Assembly: GCF_004010195.1 (NCBI RefSeq) | Contig: NC_057718.1 | Location: forward strand, 83,650,624 to 83,714,623 | DNA length: 64,000 nucleotides | Direction of reading: 5' to 3' | Source of the DNA: Chiloscyllium plagiosum | Taxonomy: Eukaryota | Shown here: positions 600-64,000 of the stretch, one piece after another | Numbering within the stretch: the first letter of the stretch is position 1 | How the letters are laid out: each line of letters begins with the position of its first letter | Notes under the pieces: model-generated | Told to the model about the DNA's origin: nothing | Seen by the model: only the letters and a program-made list of their open reading frames with translations | Database searches by the model: none | Position numbers and translations under genes: made by a program

Positions 600-726
600 T
601 GTTGAAGAGCTTATGCCCGAAACATCGACTGTCCTGCTCCTTGGATGCTGCCTGACTTGCTGTGCTTTTTCCAGTGCCACATGTTTTGATTTTGACTCTC
701 CAGCATCTGCAGGCCTCACTTTCTCC
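600..726 (+). mobile_element. Solo PLE terminal-repeat unit (family A), hammerhead decayed
   Basis: gagcttatgcccgaaacatcgac...ctccagcatctgcaggcctcactttctcc matches the other family A termini. Confidence 0.8.
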
Positions 727-1071
727 ACATTATATTGATGAGCAATTTTGGAAAGGCAGTCCTTTCAAGCTTTACAATAACAGCTTATAAATATCATAAA
801 AATACAAGAGTCCTGAGGGACATCACAACACTCTCGTTTAAATTGACTTTCTCCTCACTCTTCACAGGTTCTTTCATTAAAAAAAAACTTGATGAGAACA
901 AAGAGTGAGAGAGGCTGTGGTCATCTCCTCGTTTGAACAGTAAACAACACAGAACTGACTATCTGCAATGTCATTTCCTGCAGGGAAAGACACGGAGGCC
1001 CCATTCCTTCATCTTCATCACTAGAATATAACTGTACAAAAAGAAAATAGTTATTCCTCAAGATACAAGGT

Positions 1072-1669: not shown

Positions 1670-3037
1670 TAATCCCTCTGCTTGGCTCTACTGCTTCCCC
1701 AAGATCCACAAGTCCAACTACCTCGGCTGACCCATTGTCTCCGCGTGCTCCTGTCGCACTGAACTAATTTCTTCCTGCCTCAACTCTATTCTCTTCCCCC
1801 TTGGTCTCGGCACTTCCAATCTACATCCAGGACATAAATTATGCTCTCCACTTCTTCAGAAACTTACAGTTCCCTGGCCCCCAGGAGCTTCATCTTTACT
1901 TTGGACATGCAGTCCCTATACATGACCTTATACTGCAATGTTGGCTTGCAGGCCCTCAGTTTTTACCTCTCCAACGGACCCATCCGGATCTCTCCACATC
2001 TCCACTTCGCTGAATTAGTCCTCACCCTCAATCACTTTGCTTTCAATTCTTTCCACTTTCCCCAAATCCAGGGGGTGGCATAGGCACTTGCATGGGCCTT
2101 AGCTACGCCTAAGTGAGGACTGCAGATGCTGGAGATTAGAGTCGAAAACACAGCAGGTCAGGCAGCATCCGAGGATCAGGAGAGTCGACGTTTTGGGCAA
2201 GAGCCCTTCATCAGGAATGCCCGCCTCTTTGGCAGTTATGTTGAACAATCCTTCATCAGAATGTACACTGGTACTGTTCCCCAATTCTTCTGCCGTTACT
2301 TCAGTGACTACATCGGTGTTCTATCCTGCACCAAGGCTGAACTGGAGCAGTTCATCGACTTCATGAACAACTTCCACCCCACTCTCAAATTCACTTGGTC
2401 TATCTTGGACATCTCCCTCCCCTTTCTTGACCTCTCTGATTCCATTTCCGGTGACAGTTTATGGTCCGACATTTACTATAAGCCCACTTCCATAGCAATC
2501 TGGACTACACCTCCTCCCACACCATATCCTGCAAAAACTATATCATTTTCCCAAATCCTCCGTCTCTGTTGCATCTGCTCCGACAAGAAGACGTTCCACT
2601 CCCCAGCATACCAGATGTCTTCCTATTTCCAAGGTGCTTTTCCACCCTCTGTCATCCAGACAACCCTCCACTGCACCTCTTCCATTCCCCACTTCACTGT
2701 TCTAAACCCTGCCCCCAACATAATAAAGATGGGCTCCCCCTTATCCTCACTTTCCACCCCACCAGCCTCGACATCCAACATATCCTCAAACACTTCCGCC
2801 AACTTCAATTAGACCCTATTACCCAGAACATCTTCCTCTTCCCACAAGGACCGTTCCCTTCACCACTCCTTGATTCACACCACACTCCCCACCAACCCCT
2901 CTAACACCCCGGTACCTTCCCCTGCAACCAAAAAAGATGCAACACCTGCCTATACACCACCTTCCTCACATCCATCCATGGCCCCAAAACAGTCCTTCCA
3001 GATGAGACAGAGGTTCACCTGCCTCTCCTCCAACCTA
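1670..3037 (+). mobile_element. Penelope-like element (family A) RT-region fragment, disrupted
   Basis: PKIHK, FTLDMQSLY, QIQGVA..GPSYA-like, ELEQFIDFMNNFHPTLKFTWS and DIYYKPT motifs; frameshifted. Confidence 0.85.
2111..2218 (-). mobile_element. Solo family A PLE terminal unit inserted in the opposite orientation into the PLE RT region
   Basis: Reverse complement reads attc-CTGATGA-a-gggc-tctt-gccc-aaaa-cgtc-gac; GAAA has decayed to AAAA. It splits the SYA/CLF coding segment. Confidence 0.8.
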
Positions 3038-3040
3038 GGT

Positions 3041-3165
3041 AAAAACAATGACTGCAGATGCTGGAAACCAGATTCTGGATCAATGGTGCTGGAAGAGCAC
3101 AGCAGTTCAGGCAGCATCGAGGAGCTTCAGCAAAATCGACATTTCGGGCAAAAGCCATTCATCCA
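3041..3165 (-). mobile_element. Variant PLE terminal unit (family A relative)
   Basis: gactgcagatgctggaaaccag...cagcagttcaggcagcatc...tcgacatttcgggcaaaagcc. Confidence 0.7.
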
Positions 3166-5765: not shown

Positions 5766-8540
5766 TGAGCCTGAAGGCAGAAGATGGTTCGGTATTGTCA
5801 TCTCAGTCTTATACTGAGGATTAGCAAATCTTTTTATGCCAGTCTGAATGAAATGAAAGCCACAGACAGCATGATCTCCCAATCTTTCCTGTCCTCTATC
5901 ATGGAGGTCTTAAAGGACAGCATGTGGGAGAGGCTGGACCAGCTGTTACATCTGGATGAGCTGATCAAGGCCCTTGCATCCATCAGACAGAATCAAATTC
6001 CCAGAAGCAATGGCTTACCAAACAAGTTATACTCAGCTCTGTGAGCCTTGATTGGCCAGAACCTGCTGGAGATGAATGACAGTATGCTTCTGTTAGGTAG
6101 CATGTGCAAATCCATGATGAAAGGCATCACTCTCATCTACAAGTGGAAGGGGAGAGGGAAGAAATCAGAAATTGGTGACCAATTTCATTGCTGGACACAG
6201 GCTACAAAATCCTGTCAAAGGTCATTGCAAGCCAGATCTGCTCTGGGATTTGTGATTCACCATGACCAAACTTGCGCTGTACTGGGGAAAAAGATCTCTG
6301 AGAGTCTGCAATCCTCAGGGGAATGATTGCCGAGGTACAGGACAGGAGGATGGACGTCTGTCTTATCAGCCCCTGGACCAGGAGAAGGCCTTTAACAGGA
6401 TATTGCACACCTACATATGGGACATGCTCTCCAAAATGGGCTTTGGGGAGGGAATTTGCAACTGGACCGACTACTTTATTTCTCATTTCCTCCCCTCCCC
6501 ACACTTTATTCCAGTCCCAAGCCTCCAACTCGGCACTACCCCCTTGACCTGTCCATTGTCTTTCCCATCCATCCGCTCCACCCTCCTCTCCGACCTATCA
6601 CCCTCTCCCCCAGCTTCATCTACTTATTACATTCCCAGCTACCTCCTGCAGTCCCACCCCCCCTCCCATTTATCACTCAGCGCCCCCTTTCTGGCCCACA
6701 AGCCTCATTCCTGATAAAGGGCTTATGCCCGAAACGTTGATTCTCCTGGTCTTCGGATGCTGCCTGACTTGCTGTACTTTTCCAACATCACACTCTTGAC
6801 TCTGATCTCCAGCATCTGCAGTCCTCACTTTCTCCTGACTATTTTATATCAATCATTCGTGCAGTCTCAATCAATGGGTGGGCATCAAAAAGCTTCCTGA
6901 TCAGATCCGGGGTCAGGCAGGGCTGCCCACTCTCTCCTGCCTTGTTTGTGTGTTGTACAGAGTCATTTACTGAATCTATCAGGAACGATGTGAGCCCGAG
7001 AGGAGTGACTATTCCAGGCAGCAGAGGTTAGTAGCTCAAAGCCTTCCTCCACATGGACAATTTGCTGTTTTCTACTTGGATCCGCAGTCAGTGTGCAGAC
7101 ATCTGTGTCCAGTTTGAACTAGCCTTGAGAGCCAAGATAAATTGAGGCAAGAGTGAGGCCATGTTTTTTGGGAACTGGGCCAATCGATCCTTTACCCCTT
7201 TCACCTTCAGAACAGATAACCTGAAGGTGCTGGGAATGTGGTTCGGAGAGGCCGGGGCATGTGCAAAATCTTGAGAGGAATGCATCGCCAAGGTGAGGCA
7301 GAAACTGGTCTTGCGGGAACATTGTTCCCTCTCCATTGTGGGTAAAAATCTGGTCAGCAGGTGTGAAGCACTGTCTGTTGTTTGTGGTACAGGTCTGGTC
7401 CATTCTCTGAAACTGTGCTGTTGTAGTCACACGAACTATCTTCCACTTCTTCTGGAGATCAAAGATGTCCGCAGGGACTATGTCCAAAATTCTGGACAAG
7501 AAGGCGAAGAACGTACCCAACATTACCCTCATCCTGATGACCACTCTCGTACACAACTGCATCAAGCTGTGAGTAAACCCTTGGTATGCAAACACCAAGT
7601 GTCGCTACATACTGAGGTTCTATGTGTCCCCAGTGTTGTAGGGGACTGGCTTGTTTGCTTGAATGCTCCCCATAGTTGGACTGTTTCATATCCCTGTCCT
7701 TTGTGGAGAAATTTGCAAAGAAAAACACTTTTGACCACAAGTCCATCAGGAAGTGGTCAGCACGTAGTGTCCTTTAGATCCTGAGGAAAAAGGAGAGAGT
7801 GGATTCTGTCGCTTGGAAGCCAACTGGCAGACTAAGTCATCACCAAAACTTTCCAACACGCACCAAAACATTGCTTGGCTTGTGGTGAAAAGGTGAGAAG
7901 GACACTACCTGTGAGATCCTTCATGTATGCTTGATGTGTGTGTGCCACCACATGCTGCCCTCAAAGCAGCTGTGGTGGAGTAGAGACTATCACACATCGC
8001 CTGCTTGAAGTCTGGAGAGAGATGCAATGTTTTTTGTCGAGGTTTGTCCTGAGCAGCTTTGTGACACAGGATTCTGTGCTCTATGGTCTGTTCTCTAGGA
8101 CACACAGCAAGACAAACGTCAATATTTCCTGGAGGACCATCAACTTGGTGAAAGCCACTCTTTGATCTGTCCGAAACTTGTTGGTCTTCCAGAACAAGGA
8201 GTTGACCCCAACCGAGTGTTGCAGACTGACACATTCCAAGGTCCAGGACTACATGCTGAGGGATGCAGAAATGCTTGGGGCAGCTGCTGCCAAGGCGCCC
8301 TAGGTCTTCCTGTTGAAGTTAAATTGGGGGTCCATTCAGTTATCGGACCCTCCGATTGCCTCAAATGCATGTGAATATAGTGTGGTTTAAGCCAGAGACA
8401 CTTTTGGTTTGTTTGGATAGAGTCAAACTCCCATGTTTGTTTATTTCCCCGATATGCTACTGTCCAGAAGCAAATTGCTTTTATGACCATGTGTGTGTAT
8501 AGGTATTTTTTATGAATGAATTATATTTAAAACAAGAAAA
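5766..8540 (+). mobile_element. L1/Tx1-clade LINE, 5'-truncated and degraded (RT to 3' UTR)
   Basis: Collinear with the element at 46940-49374 (KGITLIYK, LDQEKAF, GVRQGCPLSP, SKVQDYMLRDA); many stops and frameshifts. Confidence 0.9.
6480..6836 (+). mobile_element. PLE family A 3' fragment inserted in Tx1
   Basis: Pyrimidine-rich 3' region plus terminal unit. Flanked by GACTACTTTAT (6469-6479) and GACTATTTTAT (6837-6847). Hammerhead core mutated to CTGATAA. Confidence 0.85.
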
Positions 8541-12280: not shown

Positions 12281-13158
12281 CAATGTCTTCACTAATCCTG
12301 CACAGAAAGTACAGCACAGACACTATTGCACAAGGCCAGACTCTAAAAGGTAATGTTGTTAAAAACAAATTAGTTTTAATGTTTCTCCCTCTCCCCCCAA
12401 TCTTGTATGTAAGTTCCACCGTTGAATTTACTCTACATAAACATGTTTATTTGTATTTTTTGTTTCCTCTTTTCCTGGTTGTTTGGTTGCTGACTGCAAA
12501 TACCTGGCCAACAGGTCATTTAGTTCAAATGTCATTCAGTTTTAATTATAACAACTAAGTCCCATCCTGAGAAAATCAAAAAAAAAAATTTCATACAATT
12601 AAATTAATGGCAGGAGCAAAATGTTATGGGCGATTGATTATCAAACTTTTGCTTGATATTAAATTGAAAGGTTCTTACCAGTGAAGATCCACAGTACATT
12701 GATATACACTACAAAAAGCAAGGGCCAATACTATGATTTATACTCAAATATAGGAGTTTGTCAATGATTTTTAATGAATGGCCACGTAATAGATAGAGAG
12801 AAAAGAAATACACTCAGTGGACTGGTAAGGTGTACAGAAAAATAGCAAATGGAATTCAACAGAAAAGTAGGAGGTAATGTATTTGGGGAGGGCATAAGTA
12901 ATAAATGGTAAGTTACTGATAAGTGTGAAGATACTGGAAGATCTTGGAATGCATGTGGATACATTCCTGGAGGCAGCATTCCAGGAACAATGTGATCCTA
13001 CTAGGAAGGCTAGAGGATATTTCAGGTTGTTTTGGGGACGAGAGAACTGTAGCTTTGAAGTAAGATTGGACAGGTTGGAGTTGTTTTCTCTTGCATTGAT
13101 GTTTCAAAGCCATCAGGAAAAATACACATTCTTCAACTGCAAATAAACACATTTTCAA

Positions 13159-13334
13159 ATCAGAGTTGTGTGTGTGGTGCTGGAAAAGCACAGCAGGTCA
13201 GGCACATTCCTGATGAAGGGCTTATACCCGAAACATTAATTCTCCTGCTCCTTGGATGCTGCCTGACCTGCTGTGCTTTTAACCGCGCCACGCTCTCGAC
13301 TCTGATCTCCAGTTTCTGCAGTCCTCACTTTCTC
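13159..13334 (+). mobile_element. Fold-back solo PLE family A terminal unit with hammerhead motif
   Basis: Inverted partial copy (13159-13204), then CTGATGA(13210)-a-ggg..ccc-GAAA. 11-bp TSD CACATTTTCAA at 13148-13158 and 13335-13345. Confidence 0.85.
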
Positions 13335-14640
13335 CACATTTTCAATACAGACCAGTTCAATATCAGTTTCTATTGTGCGCCTCCTTACTGTGCGTATGCA
13401 GTTTCTTCTGATGCAGGAAATATGATTTGCAATTAATACACATGTTCATATCAATTGGCTCTATGCACGCACAAGCAGGCTGCATAACGGAGCAGATTTT
13501 CTCTTCTCTTACACACACACGTGGTGTCGAGTCTCGAGCACATGATAGATCAGAAGCCTAAGCATGCATGGCTCTGGAAGCCTGCACATACACAGTTGAT
13601 AGGGCAGCTGGTATTAGCAGATACTGCCTTCATTTGACACTGGCGCTCTGGAGGAGACTGAAAGCATGGACGGGGCAGAGATGTTTGGGTAAAGTGGCAT
13701 TGCTTCCTGAAAATGTTGCTGCTTGTTTCTCACCTTGCTGCACAGTGGTTGGGAAACTAGACCAGAGCAGAGAGCAGTTAAAAGTCAACTGTACATATAT
13801 TTTTGAAAATATACGTTATTCATAAAATTTGTAAATAAAAACAATTCAACTTGAACATTACAGGATTTTCAAGAAAATTTAATATGTTCCAAGAAAAATA
13901 TGCCTCACTCGATAACATTTTAACTATCTTAAGGTTTACAAAATATATTTCATGTCAGCTATACAACTTGGAGGCAAAATATTTCAAATTTGAATTAATA
14001 AGTGTAGCAGATATAATGTTCTCCACACAACACATGTAGAGGTGGCTAAATAAAATTTACAACATACATTCTTGGGAGAGTAACAGTCTGGGTGATCTAC
14101 AGTTTCTGACCCCTAGGTATACTGTGGCCAAATGGTCCTAGGAGCGCAATTTTTCCCCATTGTACCCCTGCAATGGCTACCCCAAGTTTTAGCATGTCTT
14201 GCAACAAATAAACCTGGAACCGGAAATATGCTGGTCTGTAAACCTCAGTCATGGTCAACTCTTTTCACTGGAGGACCTGCAAGCTTTTGGCAGACTTAGA
14301 AGCATCTTGACAGAGGTTCCTTCAGACACAGTTGGAGTTTAAGAGTCAAACACACTGTGGATCTGAAATAACAGATAGGCCAGACCAGATTTCCTTCCTT
14401 AAAGTTGATGAGTTTTATGATAATTGAGAATAGTTTTATACTCACAATTACCCAGATTAAATTAAAGTCCTACGATGGTATTTGAACCGGATGCTTAGGA
14501 TTACTCACATATTGATATTAGCATTGCGCCGCCTGTTTCCTGCTTTGTCTTTAGTGTGTAGTGATTTCATTGGTTTTTGTTCAACTTGAGTAAATAATAC
14601 TCTTGGCTTAGTTTGTTTTCAGGAACAAATACAAAAGTAA

Positions 14641-14726
14641 CGACATAGTGATGGAAAAGCACAGCAGGTCAGGTAGCATCTGAAGAGCAGGAGAATTGGT
14701 GTTTCGGGCATGTGCTCTTCATCAGG
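14641..14726 (-). mobile_element. Solo PLE family A terminal unit
   Basis: Reverse complement CTGATGA-a-gagc-acat-gccc-GAAA. 13-bp TSD AATACAAAAGTAA at 14628-14640 and 14727-14739. Confidence 0.85.
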
Positions 14727-15234
14727 AATACAAAAGTAAACCGTATAGCTTGGTATGTTAAAATAGTTTAGACCAAGTTAACAGAAGTAGGTATAGCTTT
14801 GTTACCTCACAGGAGTTCTTTTGTTGTTTACGGCTGTAAGATTTAGCTGACAACGCCCTGGCATGAGTAACTATGACTCTTTGTGATGGGGCGTCCCCAA
14901 AGCATCTTGCAGGTATAGTTACTGCTGCAAGAGTTTTCACATCTTTTGCAGTAATTGATCAATCCTCCTCCTGGTTCTCACTGGTAACAATAGATTTATC
15001 TAGGATTGGCTTATTGATCACATAAAAAGTATGACATGGTTGCAGATCTACATGGATCATGATACTATACATTAGAGGTGCCACCTTGCCAAAAAATAAA
15101 TCTACAGTACGGAAGATTTTACAGATCGCCCCAAGTCCAGGTGGGGGTATCCCAGACAAACAACTGCCCCGCTAGTTCACTGTTGGTGGTGACTGGTGTA
15201 AAATATAGCAGTCACACTATACCCGAGATAAAAA

Positions 15235-20234: not shown

Positions 20235-20707
20235 CATCTGAATTTAGTGTTTAAGATCCTCTATCAGTTGAAAAATTTATTTGTTGCTAATGCAGGGAAA
20301 ATGGACTATCTTGCTTCAATGGATGGAAGAATAGTTAGGGATCTTAATTTGGGAATGAGCCAATATCACATAACATTTACTCCTGCCCATCAACAGTTCA
20401 GCTGATGCAATACAATCCTCTGCTCTATCTCAAAACTGTCATCCTTTAGGAATGTTCTGACTCAGTCAAGTTGGAATTGAACCAGCAACCTAAGGATGAT
20501 AGTTTTGTGATGTAATATAGTCCTCTGCTCCATCAACTTAACTATTGACAGGCAAGAGTAAATGTTATGTGATTGTCTCATTCCCAAATTCATATCCCTA
20601 ATTATTCTTCCATCCATTGAAGCAAGGTAAGCCATTAATCAATTTCCCTTCATTAGCAACAAATATATTTTTCAACTGATAGAAGATCTTAACACTGAAT
20701 TCAGATG
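20235..20707. repeat. Long imperfect inverted repeat (~175-bp arms, ~125-bp spacer)
   Basis: 20235-20407 is the reverse complement of 20531-20707, e.g. tcttgcttcaatggatggaagaatagttagggat versus atccctaattattcttccatccattgaagcaagg. Confidence 0.9.
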
Positions 20708-20826
20708 AAGGGCTTATTGCCAAAATGTTGATTCTCTTGCTCCTTGGATGCTGCCTGACTTGCTGTGCTTTTCCAGTGCCACACTTTTCATCTCTGATCT
20801 CCAGCATCTGCAGTATTATTTTCTCC
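20700..20826 (+). mobile_element. Solo PLE family A terminal unit, decayed hammerhead
   Basis: cagatgaagggcttattgccaaaatgttgattctc...ctccagcatctgcagt. Confidence 0.8.
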
Positions 20827-22152
20827 GGAATCGGAACATTTATTGCCATAGACATGATGAGCTAAATGGTTTTTTTCTCTGCTGTAGGACTGTTTAAATG
20901 ACTAATTTGGGCCATTTCTACACTATCTTGTAATTGAAAATGGAGTGTGTCTGCAGGGACAAACTTCTAAATGCATACACCTATGGATCAATGGGTAAAC
21001 ATACTTGTTACTGCTCGCATCCTGAAGATTACCTATGTGAGTATCAAGTTGTGTGGAGACCCTTGATATGCAAACACTGTTTCATAACATAATGAGGTTC
21101 TGTCTGCCCTAATGTCAAGGAAGGACCTGGTTGCATGAAATGATCTGTTCAGTTGGGCTGCAGTACAGCATGGGCCTCTTTTGAAAACGTGTGCAGAAGT
21201 ACATATTTGATCACAAATAAATGTTTTTGTGCAGTGTCCTCGAGACCCTACGGGAAAAGGAATATGGACGGACATATTGAATGGCTGCCTCAGCATGCTG
21301 CCTTTGAAGCAACTGTAGTGGGGAGACCATCACCCACCTCCCTGGGTGAAGAAGAATGTGAGGACACAGATTTAAAGTCAAGTAATTTGCAAAAGCAGCA
21401 AGGGTGATGTCACAAAAAGATTTTTCATGCAGCGAGTAGTTACGGCATGGAAAATAAAATGCCTGGAAGTTTGGTAAAGACAGGTTCAGTTGAGGCAGTC
21501 AAGAGGGCATTGGATGATTATTTGAATAACACATCATGTGCATAGAAAAATCATTAGATTGGCACTAGGTAATGACGCTCATTTAAACAGCTGCTGCAAA
21601 CATAAAGAACCAAATGGCCTCCTTCCGCAACTCAAGACATCTGAAATGGCCCTTTGCAAAACATGCCCAAAAGGAGATGCAGTGGCTTTTGTTGCAGTTG
21701 ATCCCAAGCAACTCCATAACATAGGATGTGTCCTTTATGCGCTGTTGCCAACATAGTGGAAAATGCCCTCTGATCTGGAATGGAATCAAAAGGTGACTAG
21801 GACAAAAGCATGAAAGTTGAGTGGAGGATTATTAGATCAGCCATGATCTCATTGAATACTGCAGCAGACTCAAATGGGTTGAATGGCCTGCTTCTGCTCC
21901 TATATCTTTTGGTCTTATAGCTGAGTGTTGCAGGTTGGTGCATTCCAAGGTCCAGGACAGTGTGCATGTGCGTTGGGGGGGAGGGGGGAGAAGAGGGAGG
22001 TGGTTTAAGCTGCGTCAATGGCTTTATGAGGAAAGGCTACGTCATACCCAGGAACTGGAAATCATGTGGAACCCTTGAAGCTGTAAGCACTAGAGTCCAA
22101 ATATCCATTTGCGGAATAATCTGCCAAGGCAAGTGCAATGAATGAAATGTAC

Positions 22153-24630: not shown

Positions 24631-26233
24631 CTTTATTCAGAAAATAAAAATAAATTCTTGTTACTTTTTCTGTGAAATTACATTTGAAGCATCAAAAACG
24701 CATCTACACTCCTCCTGATGGTTCAGCAAGCTAATGCAGCAAGTAGCTGTGACATTCAAACTGGATATTGTTCAATGGTTCTCACTGTCAAGGTTCATAA
24801 TGAATAATGCTCAAGACTCGCTTGGAGATCAGTCAATATACACGGGTTGTGAAAAGATAATAAAATAGAGTCTGGGAATTGCATTTTGGGATCTTTCTGG
24901 TTAGATAATTTTGAGTCAGCTCACCTTACTAATTGAGTCATTAGGGAAGTTCACATTGCATGCTTTTCACGTTTTGTTTTAGTTGTGAAAGGAAACCTTC
25001 CTCAACAGTGAGAAAACACACTGTAGCTGAAACGCACTGACTCCCCCCAAAAAACTGAGTATTTTGGAAATTCCTTATGATACTAATCCTATAGCTTGTT
25101 ATAGGCTCACCCTTTTTCTGCTGTGTGTTGATGTATCTTTACTGGTTTATTTCTCTATAAGGGAATGAAAGTAATCAGAAACAAAATTTGCTAAGGTATT
25201 GCTATAGCCGCTAATTTAGTGTAATGTTAACTTATCTAAAGTCAGACAAAAATGTTTTATACAGGTCCATAAATAACATTTCGTAGAAATGGTAACCAAC
25301 TTGGAGCATGTATATATGTGTGAACTGCTGGATTTAAGAATGCAGTTCAACTTCATTTGATAATAGTGACTGTGTTATGACCTCAGCTGAAGTTATTACT
25401 TGACAAGACAGCTCCCAAACAGAAACCTTGCTTGATTCATCATATTTTGGATTTGTTTTGATTCTAACAATTCAATCTCTCGCTGAAATATAAGCATGCT
25501 ATGCTGCATACTTTGCAGTAACAATAAAACAGAAGTTTAACAACAAAAGACAGTAAAATAAACTAAACCATTTAGTGATTCAAACATGTTTAAACACAAA
25601 AATATAATTCCACTAAACCCAAAACCATCTCCATAAATTGAAAAATCAAAATCAAAACTGGCTTTGTATTATACCTAAACACCCTTAGGTACAGTACCCA
25701 AACTAGCATGCAGAGTTCCTTTATCAAACACTTGAGAAGATTTAAATTACTATAACGTCAACTTTTAGATGAGAATTGAAGGTAGCTCCAGGAATTAGCT
25801 TTCACACACCTGACTTTTACAACATGGAGACAGATCGAACCAAACCAGTCCTTTCTACCTCTGCATTCACGACACTAAAATTAAACTGAACACACTCAAA
25901 TATTCACTGCAAGCATTTGTAACCAGACCTTTAAATAATCAATACCAGCACTTGTGAATAATTGCAGACACCAGTTTTTCATCTTAACTATTAAATACAC
26001 AATAATTTCAGCAGAGAAATTAAACACCAGATTAACAGATTAATGCCTGTGCTTTAAATATGAAACATTTGTTCTTAGCCCTACTTACATAAAAGACAAA
26101 CACATGCAGTTAAGGGATGATTGAAAGAAAACAACATTGACTTAAATGGCTTTCATAATGAGCTGTTTCACAGGCATAAGTAGACTCCTTGGTCATTTAT
26201 CAGAAATGTTGCTTTGGTCATCTTCTCAGTTCA

Positions 26234-29200
26234 GAGTTGAAAAGTTTGGTGCTGGAAAAGTACAGCCAGTCAGGCAATATCCAAGAAGCAGTAGAGTTGA
26301 CGTTTTGAGCATTAGGTCTTCATCGGGAATGGGAGGGGGTTGGGGAGAAGGTAGCTTGGAATGCGATAGTAAGATGAAGGCAGGGGTGAAGGTGACATGT
26401 CAGAGAGGAGTGGAATGGCCAGTTCAAGAGGGCTGTGCTGAGTTAGAGGGTAGAATCTGGGATAAGGTGGGGGGGCAGGGGAAATGAGGAAACTGGTGAA
26501 ATCCACATCGATCCAGTGTGGTTGCAGGGTCCCAAGGCAGAAGAAGAGGCATTGTTCCTTCAGGCGTGAGATGGCTAGAGTTTGGCGGTGGAGGTGGTCA
26601 AGGACTTGCATGTCCTTGGCGGAGTGGAAAGAGATTTGAAGTGTTCGGCCACAGGGTGGTGGGGTTGATTGGTGCACGTCCCCCTGAGATGTTCTCTGAA
26701 ACATTCCACAAGTTGGCGTCCTGTCTCCCAAATGAAGAGGAGACCATATTGAGAGCGAGAGACATGGGAGATGACGTGTTTGGACGTATAGATTTGTCAC
26801 CTCAACCACTTCTGCCCTCACCGATACCACTCACCAGAACACTGCCCAAGACATCACGAGTGTCATCTGTTAAGTCACTTCCGCCCCTGTGGATGCCAGC
26901 AAAGGCACCGCTTCTGCATACCCCCACCCCCAAGGTGAACGTCACTTCCATTGGTGATATCAGCCACGATCCCATAACCACCCACTCCAGAGAGTCTCTG
27001 CCCTCACTCCCAACTCCAGCCCCATATCAGGTCCTAACTCCCAGCCCTGCCATGGTTTTACCCTCCGCCCCCATGACCTCGCCCTCACTGAAGATGAGCA
27101 ATGAGTCCTCAGTAAAGGCCTCACCTGTGTCCCCTTACGCACCTGATCAATGAATGCAACACAAGTGACAACCTCGAACTTTACTTCTGTCGCTTCTGCA
27201 CTTGCTTTTTGCCAATCAGGACACCAGTCCACCTTCCAAGGACCCCTTCTCCCACCTCCAACACACCCCATCCATGTGGGCACCCTGTACCTGTCTATTA
27301 CCCATCCTCAATCTTTTCACCTCCAAAGGTCGCCACAATGTTGACTGCCTCAATCTGTTCACCTCTCACCCACCCCAATCTCACTCTCGCAACGCACAGC
27401 CCTCCAATCCAACCCCAACCTCACCATCAAACCAGCAGACTGGGGGTGGGGTGGGGCGCAGGGGTAGGTTGGCGCACCGACAACCTCTACACTGCTGAAA
27501 CCAAGTACCAACTTGCAGACAACTCCTCCTACTGCCCCCTCATTCACGACCTCACCTCCCATCACCAAACCATCTCCCAGATGTCCCACCACCAGCCTCC
27601 AACCTCAGTGTCCACGAACCCCGCACCACCTGGTTCCACCTTTTACACAAAATTCACAAACATGACTACCCTGGTCAACCCATTGTCTCAGCCTACGCCT
27701 GCCTCACCGAACTTATCTCCTCATATCCTGACACTGTCTTGTCCCCCTTGGTCCAGGAATACTCCACATACATTTGGGACATCACCCACGCCCATCACCT
27801 CCTCCGTGACTTTAATTTCCCCGGCCCCCAACCCCTCATCTTCACCATGGATATCCAATCCCTGTACACATCCATCCGCCACGACTAAGGCCTTCAAGCC
27901 CTCAGTTTCTTCCTCTGCCGCCGACCCAATCAGTATCCTTCCCTTGACACACACATTTGATTGACTGAACTGGTCCTCACCCTTAATTTCTCCTTCGAAT
28001 CCTCCCACTTCCTTCAGACCAAAGGGATGGCCCTGAGCCTCTCTCTTCGTTGGGTACATGAAACAGTCCATCCCCCACAGTTACACTGGCACCATTCCCC
28101 ACCTTTTCCTCTGCTACATCGATGACTGCATCGGCGCCACCTTGTGCTCCCACTAGGAGGTTTAACAGTTCATCAACTTCACAAACACTTTCCACCCTGA
28201 CCTGAAGCTCACCCAGACCATCTTGGATACCTCCCTCCACTCCCTGGGGCTCTCTGTCTTCATTTCCAGCGACCGACTTAACACTGACATATATTTCAAA
28301 TTACCAACCTGCTAATACCCTCTTGCAGATTCCTTATGTCTGCATCACCATATCGCCTGCCACCTATTTTTGTCTTCAAACCCACTGACTCACAGCTACC
28401 TGGACGACACCTCCTGCCACCCTGCTTCCTGCTAAAACTCTAGCCCTTACTCCCAACTTCTCTGCTGCACCTATTCCCAGAACCAATTACACCACAGAAC
28501 ATTGGAAATGGCCTCCTTCTTCAGGGGCTGCAATTTCCCCTCCCACATGGTCAACAATGCCCTCCAATACATCGCCTCCACTTTCTGCACCTCTGCCCTT
28601 GAACCCCACCCCTCCAATCGCAACCAGGACAGAACTCCTTGGTCCTCATCTTCCACCCCACCAACCTCTGGATACAACGCATCATCTTCTGCCATTTCCA
28701 CCACTGACAAACAGACCCCACCAGGGAAATATTTCCCTCCCCACTCCTGTCTGTGTTTTATAGAGACCACTCCCTCCTTGACAAGTCCATGCCCCTTACC
28801 AACCTACCCTCCCTTCCTGACACCTTCCCTTGCCACTGCAAGTGTAAAACCTTTGCCTACACCTTCCCCCTTACCTCTGTCCAAAGCCCCAAGGAAACCT
28901 TTCTCATCTGACAGATTCACCTGTACTTCCAAACACATCATCTACTGTGTTCGTTGCTCTCGAAGTTGTCTCCTCGACGTTGGTGAGGCAGGACACCAAC
29001 TTGTGGAATGTTTGAGAAAACATCTCTGGGACACGCGTCAGATCAACCCTGCTGCCCTGTGGCCGAACACTTCAACTCCCCTTCCCACTCTGCCAAAGAC
29101 ATGCAAGTCCTTGGCCTCCTCCACCGCCAAATTCTAGCCATCTGACACCTGGAGGAAGAATGCCTCATCTTCTGCCTTAGGATCCTGCAACCATACTGGA

Positions 29201-29561
29201 TCAATGTTGATTTCACCAGTTTCCTCATTTCCCCAGCCTCCATATTATCCCAAATCCAACCCTCTAAATCAGCACCGCCCTTTTGAACTGTCCATCTCCC
29301 TTCCCACCGACCCACTCCACCTTCCTCTCCAACCTATCACCATCACCCCCACCTTCACCTACCTATCACATTCCCAGCTACCTTACCCCCACCGGCCCTA
29401 CCCCCCTCTCATTTATCTCTCAGCTCCTTTGGGCCACCCTCATTCCTAATAAGAGCTGATTCTCGAAACATCGACTCTCCTACTCCTCGGATGCTATGCT
29501 TCTCCTGCGCCATGCCTTTTGACACTGATCTCCAGCATCTGCAGTCCTCACTTTCTCCGAC
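26234..29561 (+). mobile_element. Large PLE family A copy with inverted 3'-end copy at its 5' side
   Basis: 26234 to ~26800 is an inverted 3' end. From ~26810 it runs forward through VLSKGL, KIHK, FTMDIQSLYTSI, CYIDD (RT) and IYCVRCSRSCLLDVGE (GIY-YIG) to the terminus. TSD CTTCTCAGTTCA (26222-26233) and CTTCTCGGTTCA (29562-29573). Confidence 0.88.
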
Positions 29562-31054
29562 CTTCTCGGTTCATCCAGGCAAAGGCAGCAATACTTCTAA
29601 CACCTCATAGAAAACAGTTTAAAAAAAAAATTAATTCTTGTTCGACAGAGACAGAATGATATACTATTCAGCGGCCTCAATTGCCAACTGCTTGAACGTA
29701 ATTCCAGCATATCTGGAAGAGACCCTAATTCCCAGGTATTAACCTTGTTCAGGTAAACCTTGCTAACAAGTCATCTCTTTTGTTGTCCGAATGCAGACAG
29801 CATTTGTAAAGTGTGTTAAATTTAATTTTTAAAGTATTGTTACTGTTTCTAATTTTGGCAGCACTTGTTTATATTTTTTACCCCTTCCTGTCACAATTTA
29901 ATTTGCCTCATTACCCTGCATCTCTGCTCTCTCTCTTACTTTGGATTTTTAAATTTAAAAACACTTCCCTTCAACTGAACCCCTCCCCTCACTAAATTAG
30001 TTTAAAATCCTATCTACAGGATAGCTTCTTCCCCACTGTTAGAGTTATGAATAGGCCTCTCATTAGAGCTGCTGATCTTTTCTGTACCTGTAATGTTAAA
30101 GTCTATACTCTGTTTTATTACCCCGGTGTACTTTTGTAAGGTATGATTTGTCTGGTTAGCACAAAAAACACTATTTTTCACCATCTCAGTACATGTGACA
30201 ATAATAAATCAAAATCAACCCTAGTTATATGTTTTGCCAGGACATTGCAGCCCATCCCAACAGAACAGCTTTCTCTTCCTCTACTGCTGGTACCAGTACT
30301 CCATGAATCGGAACCAACATTGCCCACATCAATCTTTGAGTCAAACATTTAACTCTAACTTTATTTACGCAGTACCAATTTGCATGCAACTCAGGTAGCA
30401 ACTTTTGGTATTACCCTTCAGGGCTCTGCTTTTTAAGCCTGAGCTGCTCATAACCACTCAGCAGGATCTTTTAGTCCTACCTACTTATTGGTAACTAACA
30501 TGGACCACAGCAACTGGATCCTTCCCCTCCCATCAAGTTCTCTCCAGCCAGAAAAGATGTTCTGAACCATGGCATCAGTTAGGCAACATAGCCTTCAGAA
30601 TTCTCTGTTCTGAATACAGAGTTCAGCATCTGTTCCCCTAATAATACTATTGTCTTTTTCTATTAAGTTTCTCTCCCCCCCGCCACCACACCTCAATTTA
30701 ATGGTGCTCTGTACCATGGTGCTGTGGCCAATACATCAAATCTTCCTGCAGTCGGTACTCTCGTCCTCATTGAACAAGGGCATTGGCTAAGGCCCCTCCA
30801 AAGCTGAATTCCGATCTCCATACCTGCCTCATTTGCAGTCATATCTTCTCGCCCCTGACCACAGATCAAATTCAATATAGTTAATCTAAGGGGGGTGTGA
30901 CTTCCTCCTGAAACTTTATCCAGGTACATCGTTCCCTATCTGATGTGTACAAGAGCCTGCAGTTCAGTCTTAAGCTCATCAACTCTAAGCCAAAAGTTCC
31001 TTAAGCAGCCAAAACTTGCTGTAGATCTCACGGAAGAACCCACTCACAACAGGT

Positions 31055-31650
31055 CACGCAAGGTCTTGGTGCTTGTTGGGCAGTTCTGGGGATGAAGTGT
31101 TCTGCCAAATGACTGATATTCTGCTCAGGAAACAAACAACCTGACAGAATCCGCCCCCTCTTTTTCCTGTCGGGTCTTGAGGACACTACGTGCTGACCAC
31201 TTTCCGACGGCCTTGTGTTCAAAGGTGTTTTCATTTCAGATTTCTCCATGAAGGACAGATGATACAGAACAGTCCAACTATTTTAAGTGTCCATGACATC
31301 GAAGCCAGTCCCATCCTTTGCAACTCCAGGCACAGGTAAAATGTCAGTACACAATGACATTTGGTGTTTACAAGGTGAGGGTCTAATGCACAGCTTGATG
31401 CAGCCGCACAAAAGTGGTCATCGGGATGAGGGAGGCACTGAGTCCATCCTTCCCACCCAAGAGAGAGCACCTCAGACCTGATGACCAGATGTTTACCTGC
31501 AACAGATAGGGAGCAGTGCTCCCAAAAGCCCTGTTTCTGCCTCACCTTGGCAATGCGCTCCTAGCAAGTTTTTGCACAGGCCTCGGCCCCTGCAAACTAT
31601 ATTCCCAGCATCTTAAGGTAATCTGTCTTGTTAGAGACGGGGAAGGACTA
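31055..31650 (-). mobile_element. Tx1 LINE fragment
   Basis: KVRQKQGFWEHCSLSVAGKHLVIRSE, homologous to 48100-48720. Confidence 0.8.
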
Positions 31651-32800: not shown

Positions 32801-33501
32801 CACAATGGGAGATGCACTAAGCTAGGAGGCCCAAGTTTCAAGTCCCATCAGGTGTTGAATAATAATACCTCTGAACAAATTGATTAGCAAGCATTTGCAA
32901 GTTACCTATTTGATCTTTAATCTTTTCGGACTTTATTTGTCCTTGAATGCTTTATTTAGCTTTTGAGCATCTTTGGGTCTTTCTTGATTTTACTTACCAA
33001 TGTTCGAAACTTTCCCTGACTGGAAACTCACTCCCCTGGGATTGTTTTTTAACTGTTGAGTGTAATATTTACCTCCGACAACAGAATATCATCCTGGAGT
33101 CATATCTACAGCTGTAAAAAGCATGTCTGTTCCTTGAACTAATGAATCCCTTTCATTGTTGCTTTTCTGACTTGCCTCCTTTCTCTGTGCTCAAATAGAG
33201 CCACTGATGGCATTGTAGACTAGGTTCTGACTGTAGTCACCAAAGGAACCAATGTCAAAGCAGTGTTCAAAGCTGCATACTGATTACAGAGCAAGATGCT
33301 CTTGGGGAATTCTTGTACTCTATGCCTGGCCCTCCTCATATCTATGCCCTCTGTCTGCAAACTCTTAAGCTGAAACATGCTATCCAAACAACTTCTGTAG
33401 CTTAGAAAATGCACAACAGTGACACAAGCTACTGTTCATGTTCCAAAACCTGATGACACCACTTTTCGCACATGCAGTTGTACTGGGCATAAGAAATGTA
33501 T

Positions 33502-33629
33502 GAGGAGAAAGTGAGGTCTGCAGATGCTGGAGATCAGAGCTGGAAATGAGTTGCTGGAAAAGCGCAGCAGGTCAGGCAGCATCCAGGGAACAGGAGAATC
33601 GACGTTTCGGGCATAAGCCCTTCTTCAGG
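33502..33629 (-). mobile_element. Solo 128-bp PLE family A terminal unit with intact hammerhead core
   Basis: Perfect 11-bp TSD AAGAAATGTAT at 33491-33501 and 33630-33640; no coding sequence. Confidence 0.9.
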
Positions 33630-33631
33630 AA
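33596..33631 (-). ncRNA. Minimal hammerhead ribozyme motif (family A)
   Basis: TTC-CTGAAGA-A-GGGC-TTAT-GCCC-GAAA-CG-TC-GATTC; predicted cleavage after 33601. Stem I is only about 2 bp in this copy. Confidence 0.72.
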
Positions 33632-34074
33632 GAAATGTATACCTTGTAATCCAGACTAAAATTTACTTACTTTAGTTCTTACTCTCTGAAAACCATTTTT
33701 CTTAATTAAAATCTGTGCCCATTTTCCCTCAGCTCAAATAGACTCTTCCATGCAAAAATATAGGGCTGATAAACACAGAATCAAGCCGTCAGCTCAACTA
33801 ATTATATACCCCTAATCACAACAAAAAGACAGTTGATTAAAATATTTTTCATGATTCTGTTGGCACCCAATCCTAGTATGCCAGATAAGGACAACCCAGC
33901 TCCTCTCTTATCACTCTTACTGGAAGTCTGCACTTCACTTCCATTTTCCCCACTCTGCTATAGTTGCTCATCTACACATACCACTGACATCAGAAACATT
34001 TGACCAGGGAAAGGTAAATACTAATTGTTAAATATGAGGATAACAGTAGTTCATGGAGTAAATTGGGGACCAAT

Positions 34075-35335
34075 TGCACTGCTGAATGCAGATTACAAAA
34101 CCCTGTTTAACAATACTGGGCCAGGTCTGCTCGAGGATCAGTGATTCACCCTGACCAAACCTGTGCTGTACCGGGTAGGATGATCTGAGAGCCTTGCACT
34201 CCTCAGGAATATGATCGCTATGTGTAGGATAGAAGGGTGGATGCCTGCCTCATCAGCCTGGGTGAGAAGAAGGCCTTTGACAAGGTATCGTACATTTACA
34301 TGTAGGGTGCATTCTCCATAATGGGCTTTTGAGGGGAGGGGGGGGGGGGGGGAGATGGAGGGTGGAGGAGGAAATCAGATCTTCTGCATGCAAACACCAG
34401 ATGTCATGACATACTGTGGTTTCACCGGTCCCTCGTGTTGCAAAAGATGGGACTGGCCCCATTGCCGCAGAATGCTCCAAGTAGTTGGACTGTTCCGCAT
34501 CATCTGTCCATCGTGGAGAAATTTATAAAGAAAAACACCTTTGACTATCAGTCCATTAGGAAGTGGTCAGCACAGTGTCCTTGAAAACCTACAGGGGAAA
34601 AAAAAGAGGGTGGATCCAGCAGACATTCATAGTCACTTAGCAGAATGCCGAATCATAACTTTCCAACAAGCACCAAGACATTGCTTGACTGGTGGTGAGA
34701 AGGGCGTTACCGGTGAGATCCTTCATGTACACCTGGACTCTCAGCGCCACCACACTCTGCCCTTGAAGCAGCTGCGATCAGTAGAACCTGTCATACATAT
34801 CCTGCTGGAATATGCCTTTGCAAAGGAAGTCTGGAAAGAGATGTAGTGATTTTTGTCGAGGTTTGTCCTGAGCAGCTCCATGCCACAGGGCTTTGTGCTC
34901 TACGGTCTGTTCCCCAGGACTCACACCAAGAAAAACAAACATCGAGTCCACCGAGAGGACCACCAACTCAGTGAAGGACACTCTTTGGTCTGCTGGAAAT
35001 TTGTCTGTCTTCCAGAGCAGAGGAGTTGACCTCAGTGTTGCAGATTGGCACATTCCAATGTCCAGGATTACATGCTCAGGGATGCACTAAAACCTGGGGC
35101 ACCTGTGCCAAGATTTAGTGGGGAAAAACCATTGTCTGAGGTCTTTCTGAAGTTAAGTGGGGGCCCATTCAGTTATCAGACCCAAGTGGTGCCTCAATTG
35201 TATGTTAATGTACAAGTAAGGAATGCTTTTGGTTTGTTTGTTAGATAGTCAAACTCAATGTTTGCGTCTTAGTATGCTACTCTGTAGAATCAAACTGCTT
35301 CAATGACTGAATAAATTATGTTTTTGAAACAAAAC
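34075..35335 (+). mobile_element. Tx1 LINE fragment with internal deletions
   Basis: SVIHPDQTCAVPGR, EKAFD, NTFDYQSIRKWSA and VQDYMLRDALK, plus 3' UTR. Confidence 0.85.
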
Positions 35336-35788
35336 AACTTACAAGAGACAGTTATTTGTTGCAGATATCGAAAGATTATTCACTTGCCACCTGGTCACGA
35401 TCTCACATCAAGAAAAGGTTCTGATTCAGCCGGTGACATTGGGACCTGTTTGAGTTTTTGAGAAAAGGAGACAGCAACTGATCGGCTGAAGGCCTCTACA
35501 AAGAGAGTAAACCTACTGAGACTACATCTTACCAGTCAATATTAGCAGAATTCCAGTCAGCATTTGAGTCTCACAGCAAACAGCGACAAGCACAAGGTAA
35601 CATGACAGTCCAGCCTCCCGATTAAAGAAGGCATCTAGGCATTTGTTGAAATTTCTCCATTGCTTACTTCCCTTCATCTGTAATCTCCTCAAACCACATG
35701 ATTGAGATACTGCACTTCTCCAGCTCTTGCCTCTTCAGCATTCTTGATTTTAACTGCCTTCAGCTGCCTTGGCTCAAACCCTGGAATG

Positions 35789-35995
35789 GGAAAAAGTGAG
35801 GACTGCAGATGCTGGAGATCAGAGCTGAAAATGTGTTGCTGGAAAAGCGCAACAGGTCAGGCAGCATCCAAGGAGCAGGAGAATCGACGTTTCGGGCACG
35901 AGCCCTTCCTGAAGAAGGGCTCATGTCCGAAACGTCGATTCTCCTGCTCCTTGGAGCTGCCTGACCTGCTGCGCTTTTCCAACAACACATTTTCA
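35789..35995. mobile_element. Fold-back (palindromic) PLE family A terminal unit
   Basis: Arms about 35824-35908 and 35914-35999. 17-bp TSD GCTCAAACCCTGGAATG at 35772-35788 and 35996-36012. Confidence 0.9.
35906..35941 (+). ncRNA. Minimal hammerhead ribozyme motif (family A)
   Basis: TTC-CTGAAGA-A-GGGC-TCAT-GTCC-GAAA-CG-TC-GATTC; stem II retained with one G:U pair. Confidence 0.7.
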
Positions 35996-36474
35996 GCTCA
36001 AACCCTGGAATGTTTTGAAACTACCCTCCCTACCACTGTACCGCTCATTACTTCTTTATGGCACTGCTTAAAATTTACCTCTGACATAACATATGGTCAT
36101 TTGCTTGAATATCTCTGTGAGGATTAGTGTCAAAGTTTGTCTTATAATGCTGTGAAGTGCCTTGGTATATTTTTAATATGCTAAAGCAGCTATATAAATC
36201 CAAGTTCTTATAAATGTTGCCAGAACAATTGGGTTGAGACAACACCTTTGAGAAAAAGAATCCTAAAATGTATCACTTTTGTTTTTTCAAGGAGTGTAGA
36301 CAAATAAACTAACTATATAACACAGTAATGTATGTTCGGTAAATGAAGCCACTTCTTACTCTGTGATCAATGTCTCATTCGGTGGGTCTATCCAACAAGT
36401 CATTTGAAGGGAGGGCAATTACACTGTGCCATGTCAAAAACTTCAGTTGCTCAAGTATGATTAACTCAACTTAC

Positions 36475-42426: not shown

Positions 42427-43444
42427 TTTTTTTTATTTCAAAAATATACTTTATTCATAAAATAATTTGATGGTCTGTACAGTTGGTCATGCCATACATA
42501 TGTAAACATGTACATACAGAGATCAGAATTTATCATTTTTATACACGTCTGTACATTTTTCAATCATATGCCCATATGATTAGCTGAGGCGTCAGCAGAG
42601 CCCAAATGACTGCATGGACCCCCTGTTCTTCATTAGGCAGGCAGACTTTACACAGTAGTCTTTCCCCACCGCGCCTTGGCNNNNNNNNNNNNNNNNNNNN
42701 NNNNNNNNNNNNNNNNNNNNNNNNNNNNNNNNNNNNNNNNNNNNNNNNNNNNNNNNNNNNNNNNNNNNNNNTCCTCCAGGCGCAGTTGATGTTCGTCTCG
42801 GTGTGCATCCCGTGGAACAGGCCGTAGAGCACGGAGTCCCGCGGGGCGTGCATAAAGGATCTCACAGGCAGAACTCTTCTCACCACCAGCCAAGCCATGT
42901 CTTGGTGCTTGTTGGAAAGTTCTGGCGATGAGGCATTCTGCCAAATGTCTTTGACAGTCTGCTCAGGGAACCGCTCAACAGGATCTGCCCTCTCCTTTTC
43001 CCGAAGGGTCTCAAGGACACTACGTGCTGACCACTTCCTGATGGACTTGTGGTCAAAGGTGTTTTTCTTCATAAACTTCTCCACGAAGGACAGGTGATAC
43101 GGAACGGTCCAACGACTCGGAGCGTTCCGCGGCAGTGAGGCCAGGCCCATCCTTCGCAACACCAGGGACAGGTAGAACCTCAGTACGTAGAGACACTTGG
43201 TGTTTGCGTACCGGGGATCCACACACAGCTTGATACAGCCACACACAAAGATTACCTTTGACAGAATTTTGTAATCTGCATTCAACAGTGAGATTGGTCT
43301 CCAATTTTTGAGTTCCTCCCTCTCCCCCTTCCGCTTGTAGAGGAGGGTGATGATGCCTTTCCTCATGGATTCACTCATGGTACCTGCCCGAAGCATACTG
43401 ACATACACCTCCAGCAGGTCCTGGCCAACCAAGTCCCACAGAGC
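42427..43444 (-). mobile_element. Tx1 LINE 3' portion with internal deletions (contains an assembly gap)
   Basis: Poly(A) and AATAAA at 42427-42460 on the minus strand; near-identical to parts of 47180-49374. N run at 42681-42771. Confidence 0.9.
42681..42771. other. Assembly gap (N run)
   Basis: Run of N characters. Confidence 0.99.
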
Positions 43445-44455: not shown

Positions 44456-44459
44456 GGAA

Positions 44460-45773: not shown

Positions 45774-45774
45774 A

Positions 45775-62935: not shown

Positions 62936-63160
62936 AGAAAGGGGTTAATTGCAGGAAAAGCCGTGTTTTCATACAGACAGCAAACACCGAATGTAACAAG
63001 AAAGACAGGAGTTACTTCTGATAACGTGGAAGCAAAATCTTGAGGTCTCCTGAAGCAGAACCAATATTGGGATGAATGAATCTATTGAAACAACAATAAC
63101 TTGCAAGGTAGAACATTGGATTCTTATACAACACCAGACCAAAACTCCACATGGATCAAA

Positions 63161-63356
63161 AATGTGTTGCTGGAAAAGCGCAGCAGGTCAGGGAGCATCA
63201 AAGGAACAGGAGAATCGACGTTTCGGGAATAAGCCCTTCTTCAGGCTTTTGCCCGAAACGTCGATTCTCCTGTTCCTTTGATGCTCCCTGACCTGCTGCG
63301 CTTTTCCAGCAACACATTTTTAAGCTCTGATCTCCAGCATCTGCAGTCCTCACTTT
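63161..63356. mobile_element. Fold-back PLE family A terminal unit with hammerhead core on the minus strand
   Basis: Inverted arms about 63158-63227 and 63252-63320. CTGAAGA at 63244-63238 (minus). 16-bp TSD CTCCACATGGATCAAA (63145-63160) and CTCCACAAGGATCAAA (63357-63372). Confidence 0.88.
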
Positions 63357-64000
63357 CTCCACAAGGATCAAACCTTGGACACACCCAGAGACAGATTCCA
63401 TTATTAATTGGTAACAACCAAGTTGAGTTGGGAGGCTTAACTTGCTTACTTGAGGGGTCTATGTTGGTTGCTGCATGCAATAAAGTTGAAATCATTGTTT
63501 CAGTACTTGATTGGTTGAGAGATTTCTTAACAAGTTAGCCAAATTAAAAAGGTAGTCTATGGTGATTTACCTACAACAATACCAAAACCTTTTTAATTTT
63601 AGCAAAGTTGGAGCTTTCTCATTTGTTGGAAAACTAACTTCTCTCTCCAATGAGGTATTTTTCAACACACCAACCCTTTCCTATTCCTCACCTCACCTTA
63701 TTTTCCACTAGTTGCCCAATTGAAGTATTTCCCATCCTCAAATAAAGTGACCTTGTTATTTGCACAAAACTACACGCACTATGTGCCCCATTGTAAATTG
63801 AACTTCACCCCAGTTTCATGCTCCCATTCTCTCCCTTTCCTTCCTTCTTATATTATCAACATGATTGTCAAAACATGACAATGTTCCACAGAAAAAAATC
63901 AAAGTTACTTTACAAGGTTAAGTTTCAAATCAGTGGATTGCTCCATGTTAAAATATTATCAAAGACGTTAAGTATTTGTGATGCCAATGAGCTGGCTTTG

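Follow-up and report, generated by a model that had tools for sequence, protein, structure and literature searches.

Short hammerhead-bearing insertions in Chiloscyllium plagiosum are terminal modules of a GIY-YIG Penelope-like retrotransposon

Introduction

Insertions of endonuclease-positive Penelope-like elements (PLEs) are described, in the parts of the accounts drawn on here, as 5'-truncated copies with partial tandems of pseudo-long terminal repeats (pLTRs), an adjacent inverted copy and an optional tail of 30–40 bp (PMC8557442, PMC3846280, PMC2377424). Solo pLTRs are also known (PMC8557442, PMC3846280), while the origin of the inverted repeats and tails has been called undefined (PMC8557442). 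A CX2-5CxxC motif between the reverse transcriptase (RT) and GIY-YIG domains marks the Neptune and Nematis clades (PMC8557442). Dispersed single minimal hammerheads, including close opposite-strand pairs, have been credited to truncated PLEs (PMC4209133, 2014); such hammerheads show no activity as monomers and little as dimers (PMC4209133), and one of nine frog hammerhead dimers cleaved (bioRxiv 10.64898/2026.07.22.740005). In vitro, PAc (Poseidon of Anolis carolinensis) uses two internal RNA start sites that bound the tail (Frangieh et al. 2024, PMC11167929). That system extends the two DNA strands alike, and hammerhead mutants insert normally (PMC11167929). Retrozymes, in turn, are defined by tandem units, a hammerhead in each unit, and cut or circular RNA (bioRxiv 10.64898/2026.07.22.740005, PMC7761336).

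Here we analyze a hammerhead-bearing unit in a 64,000-nucleotide stretch of contig NC_057718.1 of C. plagiosum (hereafter the window, whose positions are used throughout) together with its relatives across the genome. These insertions share with endonuclease-positive PLEs the partial tandem, the inverted 5' copy, the tail at one end, the target duplications and the TATA/Inr-like pLTR motifs, and with Neptune and Nematis a C-terminal GIY-YIG domain, here with a CX4CxxC linker. They differ from the published PLE accounts compared in that most insertions consist of the last 85–130 bp only, with 5' ends at one edge. As in the hammerheads of Cervera and De la Pena (2014, PMC4209133), a type I core is combined with an extra base before stem II and a palindromic stem III remnant, and the motifs are mostly single, with some close opposite-strand pairs; unlike those hammerheads, the young families here have a 4-bp stem II and a mismatched stem I. 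That study reported approximately 4,000–9,000 motifs in coelacanth and frog by structural descriptor, against approximately 4.6 × 10^5 here by homology, so that the methods differ. As in PAc, two 3' end classes lie about 35 nt apart, approximately 100–130 nt downstream of the hammerhead (PMC11167929). In contrast, PAc belongs to the Poseidon clade whereas the present element carries the Neptune/Nematis linker motif, and the PAc ORF starts at stem II whereas the first conserved ATG here is seen further downstream (PMC11167929). The units also resemble animal non-LTR retrozymes in being non-coding, pLTR-derived, dispersed vertebrate monomers with a type I hammerhead (bioRxiv 10.64898/2026.07.22.740005, PMC7761336), but they show no tandem units, their ends lie off the cut site, and they form no independent lineage.

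Results

The 128-bp unit and its relatives in the window

Identical 11-mers at 33491 and 33630 bracket the 128-bp unit at 33502–33629, whose minus strand carries the hammerhead-like string (33628 to 33601; Table 1). The preliminary description of a hammerhead-motif unit lying between perfect 11-bp duplications is thereby confirmed. We number positions from the A that precedes the hammerhead motif in body-attached copies, which marks the common 5' edge (+1); the predicted hammerhead cut then falls between 33601 and 33600, or +32/+33. The 5' junction of the unit shows 2 nt of microhomology with the target duplication. Neither strand gave an exact match to a Pol III A box or B box, in agreement with the earlier statement that this is not a standard SINE; two matches with one mismatch each occur on the antisense strand.

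A BLAST search with the unit yielded 15 matches in the window, query included, and a profile search likewise gave 15. All eight relatives listed previously were recovered, together with one that had been overlooked at 26228–26329. Four further insertions carry the reported duplications of 11–17 bp: 13148/13335 (11 bp), 14628/14727 (13 bp), 35772/35996 (17 bp) and 63145/63357 (16 bp with one mismatch). The claim that the unit inserts alone with target duplications is thus borne out by the 33502–33629 copy and other duplication-flanked copies, while searches at 600, 2111, 3041 and 20700 found no target duplication. The relatives at 13159, 35789 and 63161, described earlier as single units, are head-to-head inverted pairs. 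The unit had also been said to end coding Penelope copies at 6836 and 29561; it does terminate PLE sequence at both, but the copy ending at 6836 is only a 357-bp 3' fragment and not a coding one. The PLE insertion at 26222–29573 contains, in order, an inverted short-ended arm (26228–26791, minus strand), a broken RT/endonuclease body and a long unit ending at 29561.

Table 1. Features of the unit at 33502–33629 and of related insertions in the window
Feature	Position	Strand	Basis or remark
11-bp target-site duplication, left copy	33491..33501	.	sequence
128-bp PLE terminal module, long form, +4 to +131	33502..33629	-	sequence, profile
Optional ~35-nt tail between short (~+95) and long (~+130) 3' ends	33502..33537	-	
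Minimal type I hammerhead motif, predicted	33601..33628	-	core, 4-bp stem II, palindromic CG replacing stem III
11-bp target-site duplication, right copy	33630..33640	.	sequence
Solo long unit from near +11	601..730	+	no duplication found
Solo unit from near +1, internal deletion	2110..2217	-	no duplication found
Solo long unit, sister subfamily B	3038..3164	-	
5'-truncated PLE 3' end: ~230 bp of body plus long unit	6479..6836	+	
Head-to-head pair: short arm (+55 to +100, minus), long arm (plus)	13148..13345		11-bp duplication
Solo short unit, +1 to ~+81	14628..14739	-	13-bp duplication
Solo long unit from near +7	20702..20829	+	adjoins tRNA-like palindrome
3.3-kb degraded PLE insertion	26222..29573	+	12-bp duplication with 1 mismatch
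Head-to-head pair: long arm (minus), short arm (plus)	35772..36012		17-bp duplication
Head-to-head pair: short arm (minus), long arm (plus)	63145..63372		16-bp duplication, 1 mismatch

Several other features were observed in the window. A 470-bp palindrome at 20235–20707, with 78% arm identity and a tRNA-like segment at 20462–20551, adjoins one unit. Positions 3483–5790 hold a fragment from the N-terminal part of the same PLE and, after it, a degenerate tandem repeat of approximately 1.7 kb. A second PLE family at 9372–10134 (plus strand) has a GIY-YIG-like frame in which no cysteine linker was seen, and carries its own minimal hammerhead at 10027, the core of which is preceded by a TATAAA some 53 nt upstream. 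A U5 snRNA-like copy at 1591–1704 (plus strand; 51.8 bits, above the Rfam gathering score) has a degraded 3' part and is probably a pseudogene. The region 42400–49400 holds several broken copies of a non-LTR retroelement that has a zinc-knuckle-like ORF1 frame and an RT frame, with further pieces at 5768–8487, 31024–31626 and 34060–35307; we take this element to be Tx1/L1-like. The inverted pairs at 35789–35999 and 63156–63363 give weak Rfam scores as unrelated miRNA precursor families, and such pairs are a likely source of false miRNA calls.

The source element

A GIY-YIG Penelope-like retrotransposon has this unit as its terminal module. The earlier identification of the unit as a terminal PLE sequence that bears a minimal type I hammerhead motif is supported. 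Two copies, L104 and L106, are full-length partial tandems in which the unit stands directly before the ORF and again at the 3' end (1336–1459 and 4816–4940 in L104, whose front is formed by an inverted short-ended copy). The module therefore constitutes both the first ~130 nt, or leader, of the downstream element and its last 130 nt. L104 and L106 belong to sister subfamily B. Bodies of the young subfamily carry the same terminal unit as 33502–33629, but none of the 12 fetched was a full-length tandem copy, so the 5' position of the module is demonstrated in sister subfamily B only.

An ORF with PLE-type RT and, at its C terminus, GIY-YIG is attached to the unit. The open frame of L118 contains a C-x4-C-xx-C linker and a GIY-YIG-like motif; it matches an RT+GIY-YIG protein with an E value of 1e-56, and the Pfam GIY-YIG model weakly, at 0.0012 and below the curated cutoff. 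The RT region of L106 shows a 42% match to an RT+GIY-YIG protein. Pfam searches of seven degraded window frames and two RT pieces returned nothing, and a search of solved structures gave no match. The linker is of the type found in Neptune and Nematis, and this motif would place the source element with those clades. Partial tandem, inverted 5' copy, optional tail and target duplication are represented among L104, L106 and the insertion at 26222–29573.

Abundance across the genome

Genome-wide abundance was estimated from 20 blocks of 40 kb, taken at a fixed position on 20 large contigs and comprising 770,430 non-N bases. A profile built from eight window copies found 181 matches in this 800-kb sample and none in the reversed sequence. 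Since target duplications are also rarely found at random (14 of 300 random trials), the family is not a product of chance. Together with the 15 window matches, 196 were available; 53 from old or weakly aligned families were left out, which retained 143 arms in 111 insertions over 864 kb of sample and window. Of these insertions, 43 are single arms whose start lies within 14 nt of +1 and 32 are inverted pairs; 21 include body sequence, 10 begin within the unit and 5 lie at assembly gaps. The classification was automatic. Among the 43 "solos", at least 7 in fact belong to pairs in which the second arm was excluded or overlooked, and one of these 7, at 26228, has a body. Extrapolation from the 99 sample insertions gives approximately 4.6 × 10^5 related insertions in the 3.56-Gb genome. 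The very high density previously noted, about a dozen copies in 64 kb, thus reflects a family abundant genome-wide, and the 12 insertions of the window are ordinary for this genome (8.2 expected, P = 0.13).

A sharp 5' edge upstream of the ribozyme cut site

The 5' boundary is discrete and not a smooth series of truncations, as had been proposed. Among 74 single-arm copies, 25 start at −1 to +4 and 14 at +5 to +14, so that 39 fall within 16 nt, where 3.1 or 1.7 would be expected from the densities of the 46 nt on either side. The arms of pairs behave similarly, with 44 of 64 starting at −1 to +14. A second pile-up at the ribozyme cut site was also considered, since seven single-arm starts fall at +30 to +45; by eye, several of these are internal deletions and only two to four are clean. 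On a reference made of young body plus unit, read depth rises several-fold at the edge in DNA-like contigs and RNA reads, and loose read ends are listed at +1/+2. The edge lies some 30 nt upstream of the cut site, which points to a template RNA that the ribozyme had not cleaved.

Of 19 body-attached copies, drawn from diverged subfamilies, 14 have a motif of the TTATCT/TATAAA type that starts at −33 to −28; it lies at −38 to −41 in three others and is absent from two. The spacer between this motif and +1 differs in sequence among subfamilies. The context of +1 is TCATTC, TTATTC or TCAGTT, which we take to fit the initiator consensus. An initiator-like motif at the edge with a TATA-like motif about 30 nt upstream points to a likely transcription start, and the 5' edge is probably an RNA polymerase II start, as predicted from these motifs. 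In PLEs, transcription is known to begin within the pLTR (PMC2377424), and one rotifer pLTR has been noted to contain a TATA motif together with an Inr-like one (PMC3846280). No pile of RNA starts at +1 appeared in one usable poly(A) single-cell library, of which approximately 2% was read; 91% of its 2,205 placed reads continue into unlike sequence. The library showed mainly passenger reads, and one of this type would miss circular RNAs. A cap-derived extra G was not evident at the junctions when inspected by eye, the clean cases being too few.

Alternatively, the edge could be a hotspot at which RT stalls or switches template while copying from the 3' module copy, owing to the hammerhead fold, a bound protein or an old splice junction, and the solos would then be the shortest ordinary 5' truncations. 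Bodies occur in all lengths (21 single-arm copies start from −30 to −635), the poly(A) library showed no RNA start, and in one older family here AG stands at the edge; moreover, in Drosophila Penelope the intron terminates where hammerhead helix I has its 5' edge (PMC4209133). However, a hairpin barrier would halt synthesis at its 3' side (about +24), and only one copy starts in +15 to +29. The unit also folds no better than its shuffles (z −0.47), AG is lacking from this edge in the young families, and the conserved −30 motif would be left unexplained. We therefore consider a stall hotspot unlikely and favor the transcription start.

Two classes of 3' ends and their combination in head-to-head pairs

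The 3' ends fall into two classes, at approximately +130 and at about +79 to +102, and the difference between them is the known 30–40-bp PLE tail. Long ends are sharp, with 57 of 76 at profile position 128–129, whereas short ends are spread over their range, which counts against the explanation favored below. Single arms comprise 42 long and 32 short copies. In contrast, 28 of the 32 inverted pairs combine a long with a short arm, 2 being long-long and 2 short-short (P = 1e-5 against 0.5). No such counts are given in the published PLE descriptions compared; PAc, with two internal start sites and extension of both strands in vitro, supports priming of both target strands at two RNA sites, but it shows no strand preference between its start sites (PMC11167929), whereas the genomic pairs here are nearly always long plus short. 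The same arrangement recurs in the long insertions at 26222–29573, L104 and L106. Target duplications were found for 26 of the 32 pairs, against 14 in 300 by chance.

The two arms of a pair agree at 217 of 245 family-diagnostic cells, compared with 53% after shuffling, and two source subfamilies per pair were accordingly rejected for most pairs. In one head-to-head pair, L012 (block C1, 15733–15899), the arms seem by eye to be of a young and an old family; if chimeric, this pair would represent two different RNA templates in one insertion.

The pairs are best fitted by two independently primed cDNAs joined at microhomology. Both arms of a pair cover the same bases, which L1-type twin priming, a single pass on one RNA, would not produce. 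The 28 long-plus-short pairs were further scored for asymmetry, one arm being taken to extend further 5' if it did so by at least 11 nt. The short arm extends further in 10 of the 12 asymmetric pairs and the long arm in 2 (P = 0.04); the other 16 are ties and uninformative on mechanism. In these 10 pairs each arm holds bases missing from its partner, and fold-back copying of one arm from the other is thereby precluded, unless later deletions intervened.

This asymmetry bears on a different model, in which a self-priming fold-back generates the inverted pairs and endonuclease resolution the tail difference, the solos still running off the RNA end. Fold-back has been proposed for rotifer PLEs, in the passages of PMC3846280 and PMC8557442 that treat them, and agrees with the diagnostic and private variants shared by pair arms and with the quasi-palindromic junctions in many pairs. 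It does not account for the 10 of 12 asymmetric pairs in which the short arm has extra 5' bases and the long arm extra 3' bases, nor for the short ends of 32 of 74 single-arm copies, and the pair near 15820 of block C1 seemingly joins arms of two families. Fold-back thus appears quite improbable, and priming of both target strands is marginally favored.

The hammerhead motif and the question of a separate family

A descriptor search found 66 intact minimal hammerhead motifs in sample and window, against 3 in reversed DNA. The motifs show the conserved core, a well-paired stem II and a palindromic stem III remnant, mostly CG, that characterize minimal type I hammerheads. The third pair of stem I is a U-U mismatch in 36 of 66: most young copies have 2 bp, the U-U and 1 bp, some older families have 4 bp, and the 33502–33629 copy has 2 bp left. 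An Rfam search gave no hammerhead family at E ≤ 1. Ribozyme activity of this copy would be unlikely. Other hammerhead families, in blocks L011–L090, combine a compensated 3–4-bp stem I with GC in what remains of stem III, and may be better candidates for active ribozymes than the 33502–33629 family.

The unit had been proposed to be a separate retrozyme- or SINE-like family, which our results do not support, given the lack of a solo subfamily and of head-to-tail arrays and a 5' boundary in the wrong place. A solo-specific diagnostic subfamily, the absence of which the original proposal itself named as refuting it, was not found: the nearest neighbor was of the same class for 37 of 69 copies, against a shuffled mean of 36.2 (P = 0.49), the short 128-bp marker and the small sample reducing the power of this test. 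Own subfamilies derived from master copies, as expected of SINEs or other non-autonomous elements, were thus not seen in this 69-copy sample, and exact internal Pol III promoter boxes are likewise lacking. Four body-attached copies match 33502–33629 at 125–126 of 128 positions, and a fifth at 123 of 124 aligned. The best 40 genomic matches, a set biased to full-length units, comprise 10 solo, 15 inverted and 13 body-attached copies and 2 that are inverted with body. A T at +84 of the 33502–33629 copy was considered as a subfamily marker and rejected; it occurs in 39 of these 40 but in none of the 14 partner arms covering the position and in one sample arm, indicating a recurrent mutation selected by the query.

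A non-autonomous retrozyme would consist of hammerhead-cut short RNAs, possibly circularized, re-inserted as a family of their own. The clear minimal hammerhead motif, with its 66 descriptor matches against 3 reversed, and the discrete, duplication-flanked units are compatible with this, and two sample copies start at +34, adjoining the cut site. Vertebrate retrozymes derived from PLE pLTRs, including one chondrichthyan example, are also reported in the section of bioRxiv 10.64898/2026.07.22.740005 consulted. Units bounded by cut sites were, however, not observed: 39 of 74 start at −1 to +14, some 30 nt before the cut at +32/+33, and each has a single ribozyme. Among the 143 arms, representing 864 kb of the 3.56-Gb genome, no head-to-tail array of whole units occurs, and neither of the two same-strand neighbors flagged is a tandem of whole units. 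The absent solo subfamily, the stem I mismatch in most copies with only 2 bp in 33502–33629, and RNA loose ends that consist of varied flanking sequence, none of those listed being poly(A), also argue against a retrozyme. This reading is very improbable and has been largely refuted already; the unit is very probably a by-product of the PLE machinery without a separate family.

Discussion

Our explanation starts from direct observations, namely the two module positions, the sharp 5' edge, the two 3' classes, the target duplications and the absence of a solo subfamily. We propose that RT starts inside the element RNA approximately 130 nt from the 5' end, and that the cDNA would run off at the predicted RNA polymerase II start site, which would be set by the TATA-like motif at about −30 and the initiator-like motif at +1, both in the upstream body. 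The template would be uncut RNA from any copy that keeps the promoter, whether full-length or truncated, and solos, which lack it, would be dead ends. The two target strands would each prime a copy of the same source RNA, the long site being used from one strand and the short site from the other; the two cDNA ends would then join by microhomology to give head-to-head pairs, and loss of one side would leave a single arm. The hammerhead would be a passenger in the insertion step. We favor this explanation as a whole, comprising the PLE terminal module, internal RT start, run-off at the transcription start and two-strand priming, with some reservation.

The preliminary description was correct in recognizing a discrete, abundant PLE-derived unit, whereas its separate retrozyme family is not supported. 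Nor would an unrecognized vertebrate retrozyme-like family be new in kind, as truncated-PLE hammerheads and vertebrate retrozyme monomers are already in print, as far as the sources compared extend. The element class is already known, and the value of the present work lies in the mechanistic proposal of start-site run-off and two-strand priming, which is unproven but testable. We found no report of start-site run-off, two-strand priming or a long-plus-short rule for PLE stubs in the open literature, a scope that mostly excludes subscription papers; the shark-specific literature within that scope likewise gave no description of run-off or two-strand priming for them. The unit family may already be catalogued in Repbase or in the subscription literature.

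Approximately half a million inserts of 85–220 bp, among them many hairpins with weak scores as microRNA precursors, carry a risk of misannotation as SINEs, MITEs or miRNAs. The long-plus-short rule and the sharp 5' edge provide quantitative predictions for the existing in vitro PLE system. We suggest tentatively, with slightly more doubt than confidence, that the stubs are a fossil record of PLE insertion, preserving fixed long and short two-strand priming, synthesis to the capped 5' end and joining by microhomology. If so, one mechanism would account for the unexplained inverted pLTRs and the one-sided tail, and promoter-bearing truncated copies would be Pol II-driven sources of hundreds of thousands of SINE-sized inserts, arising without a Pol III promoter, poly(A) or a ribozyme cut.
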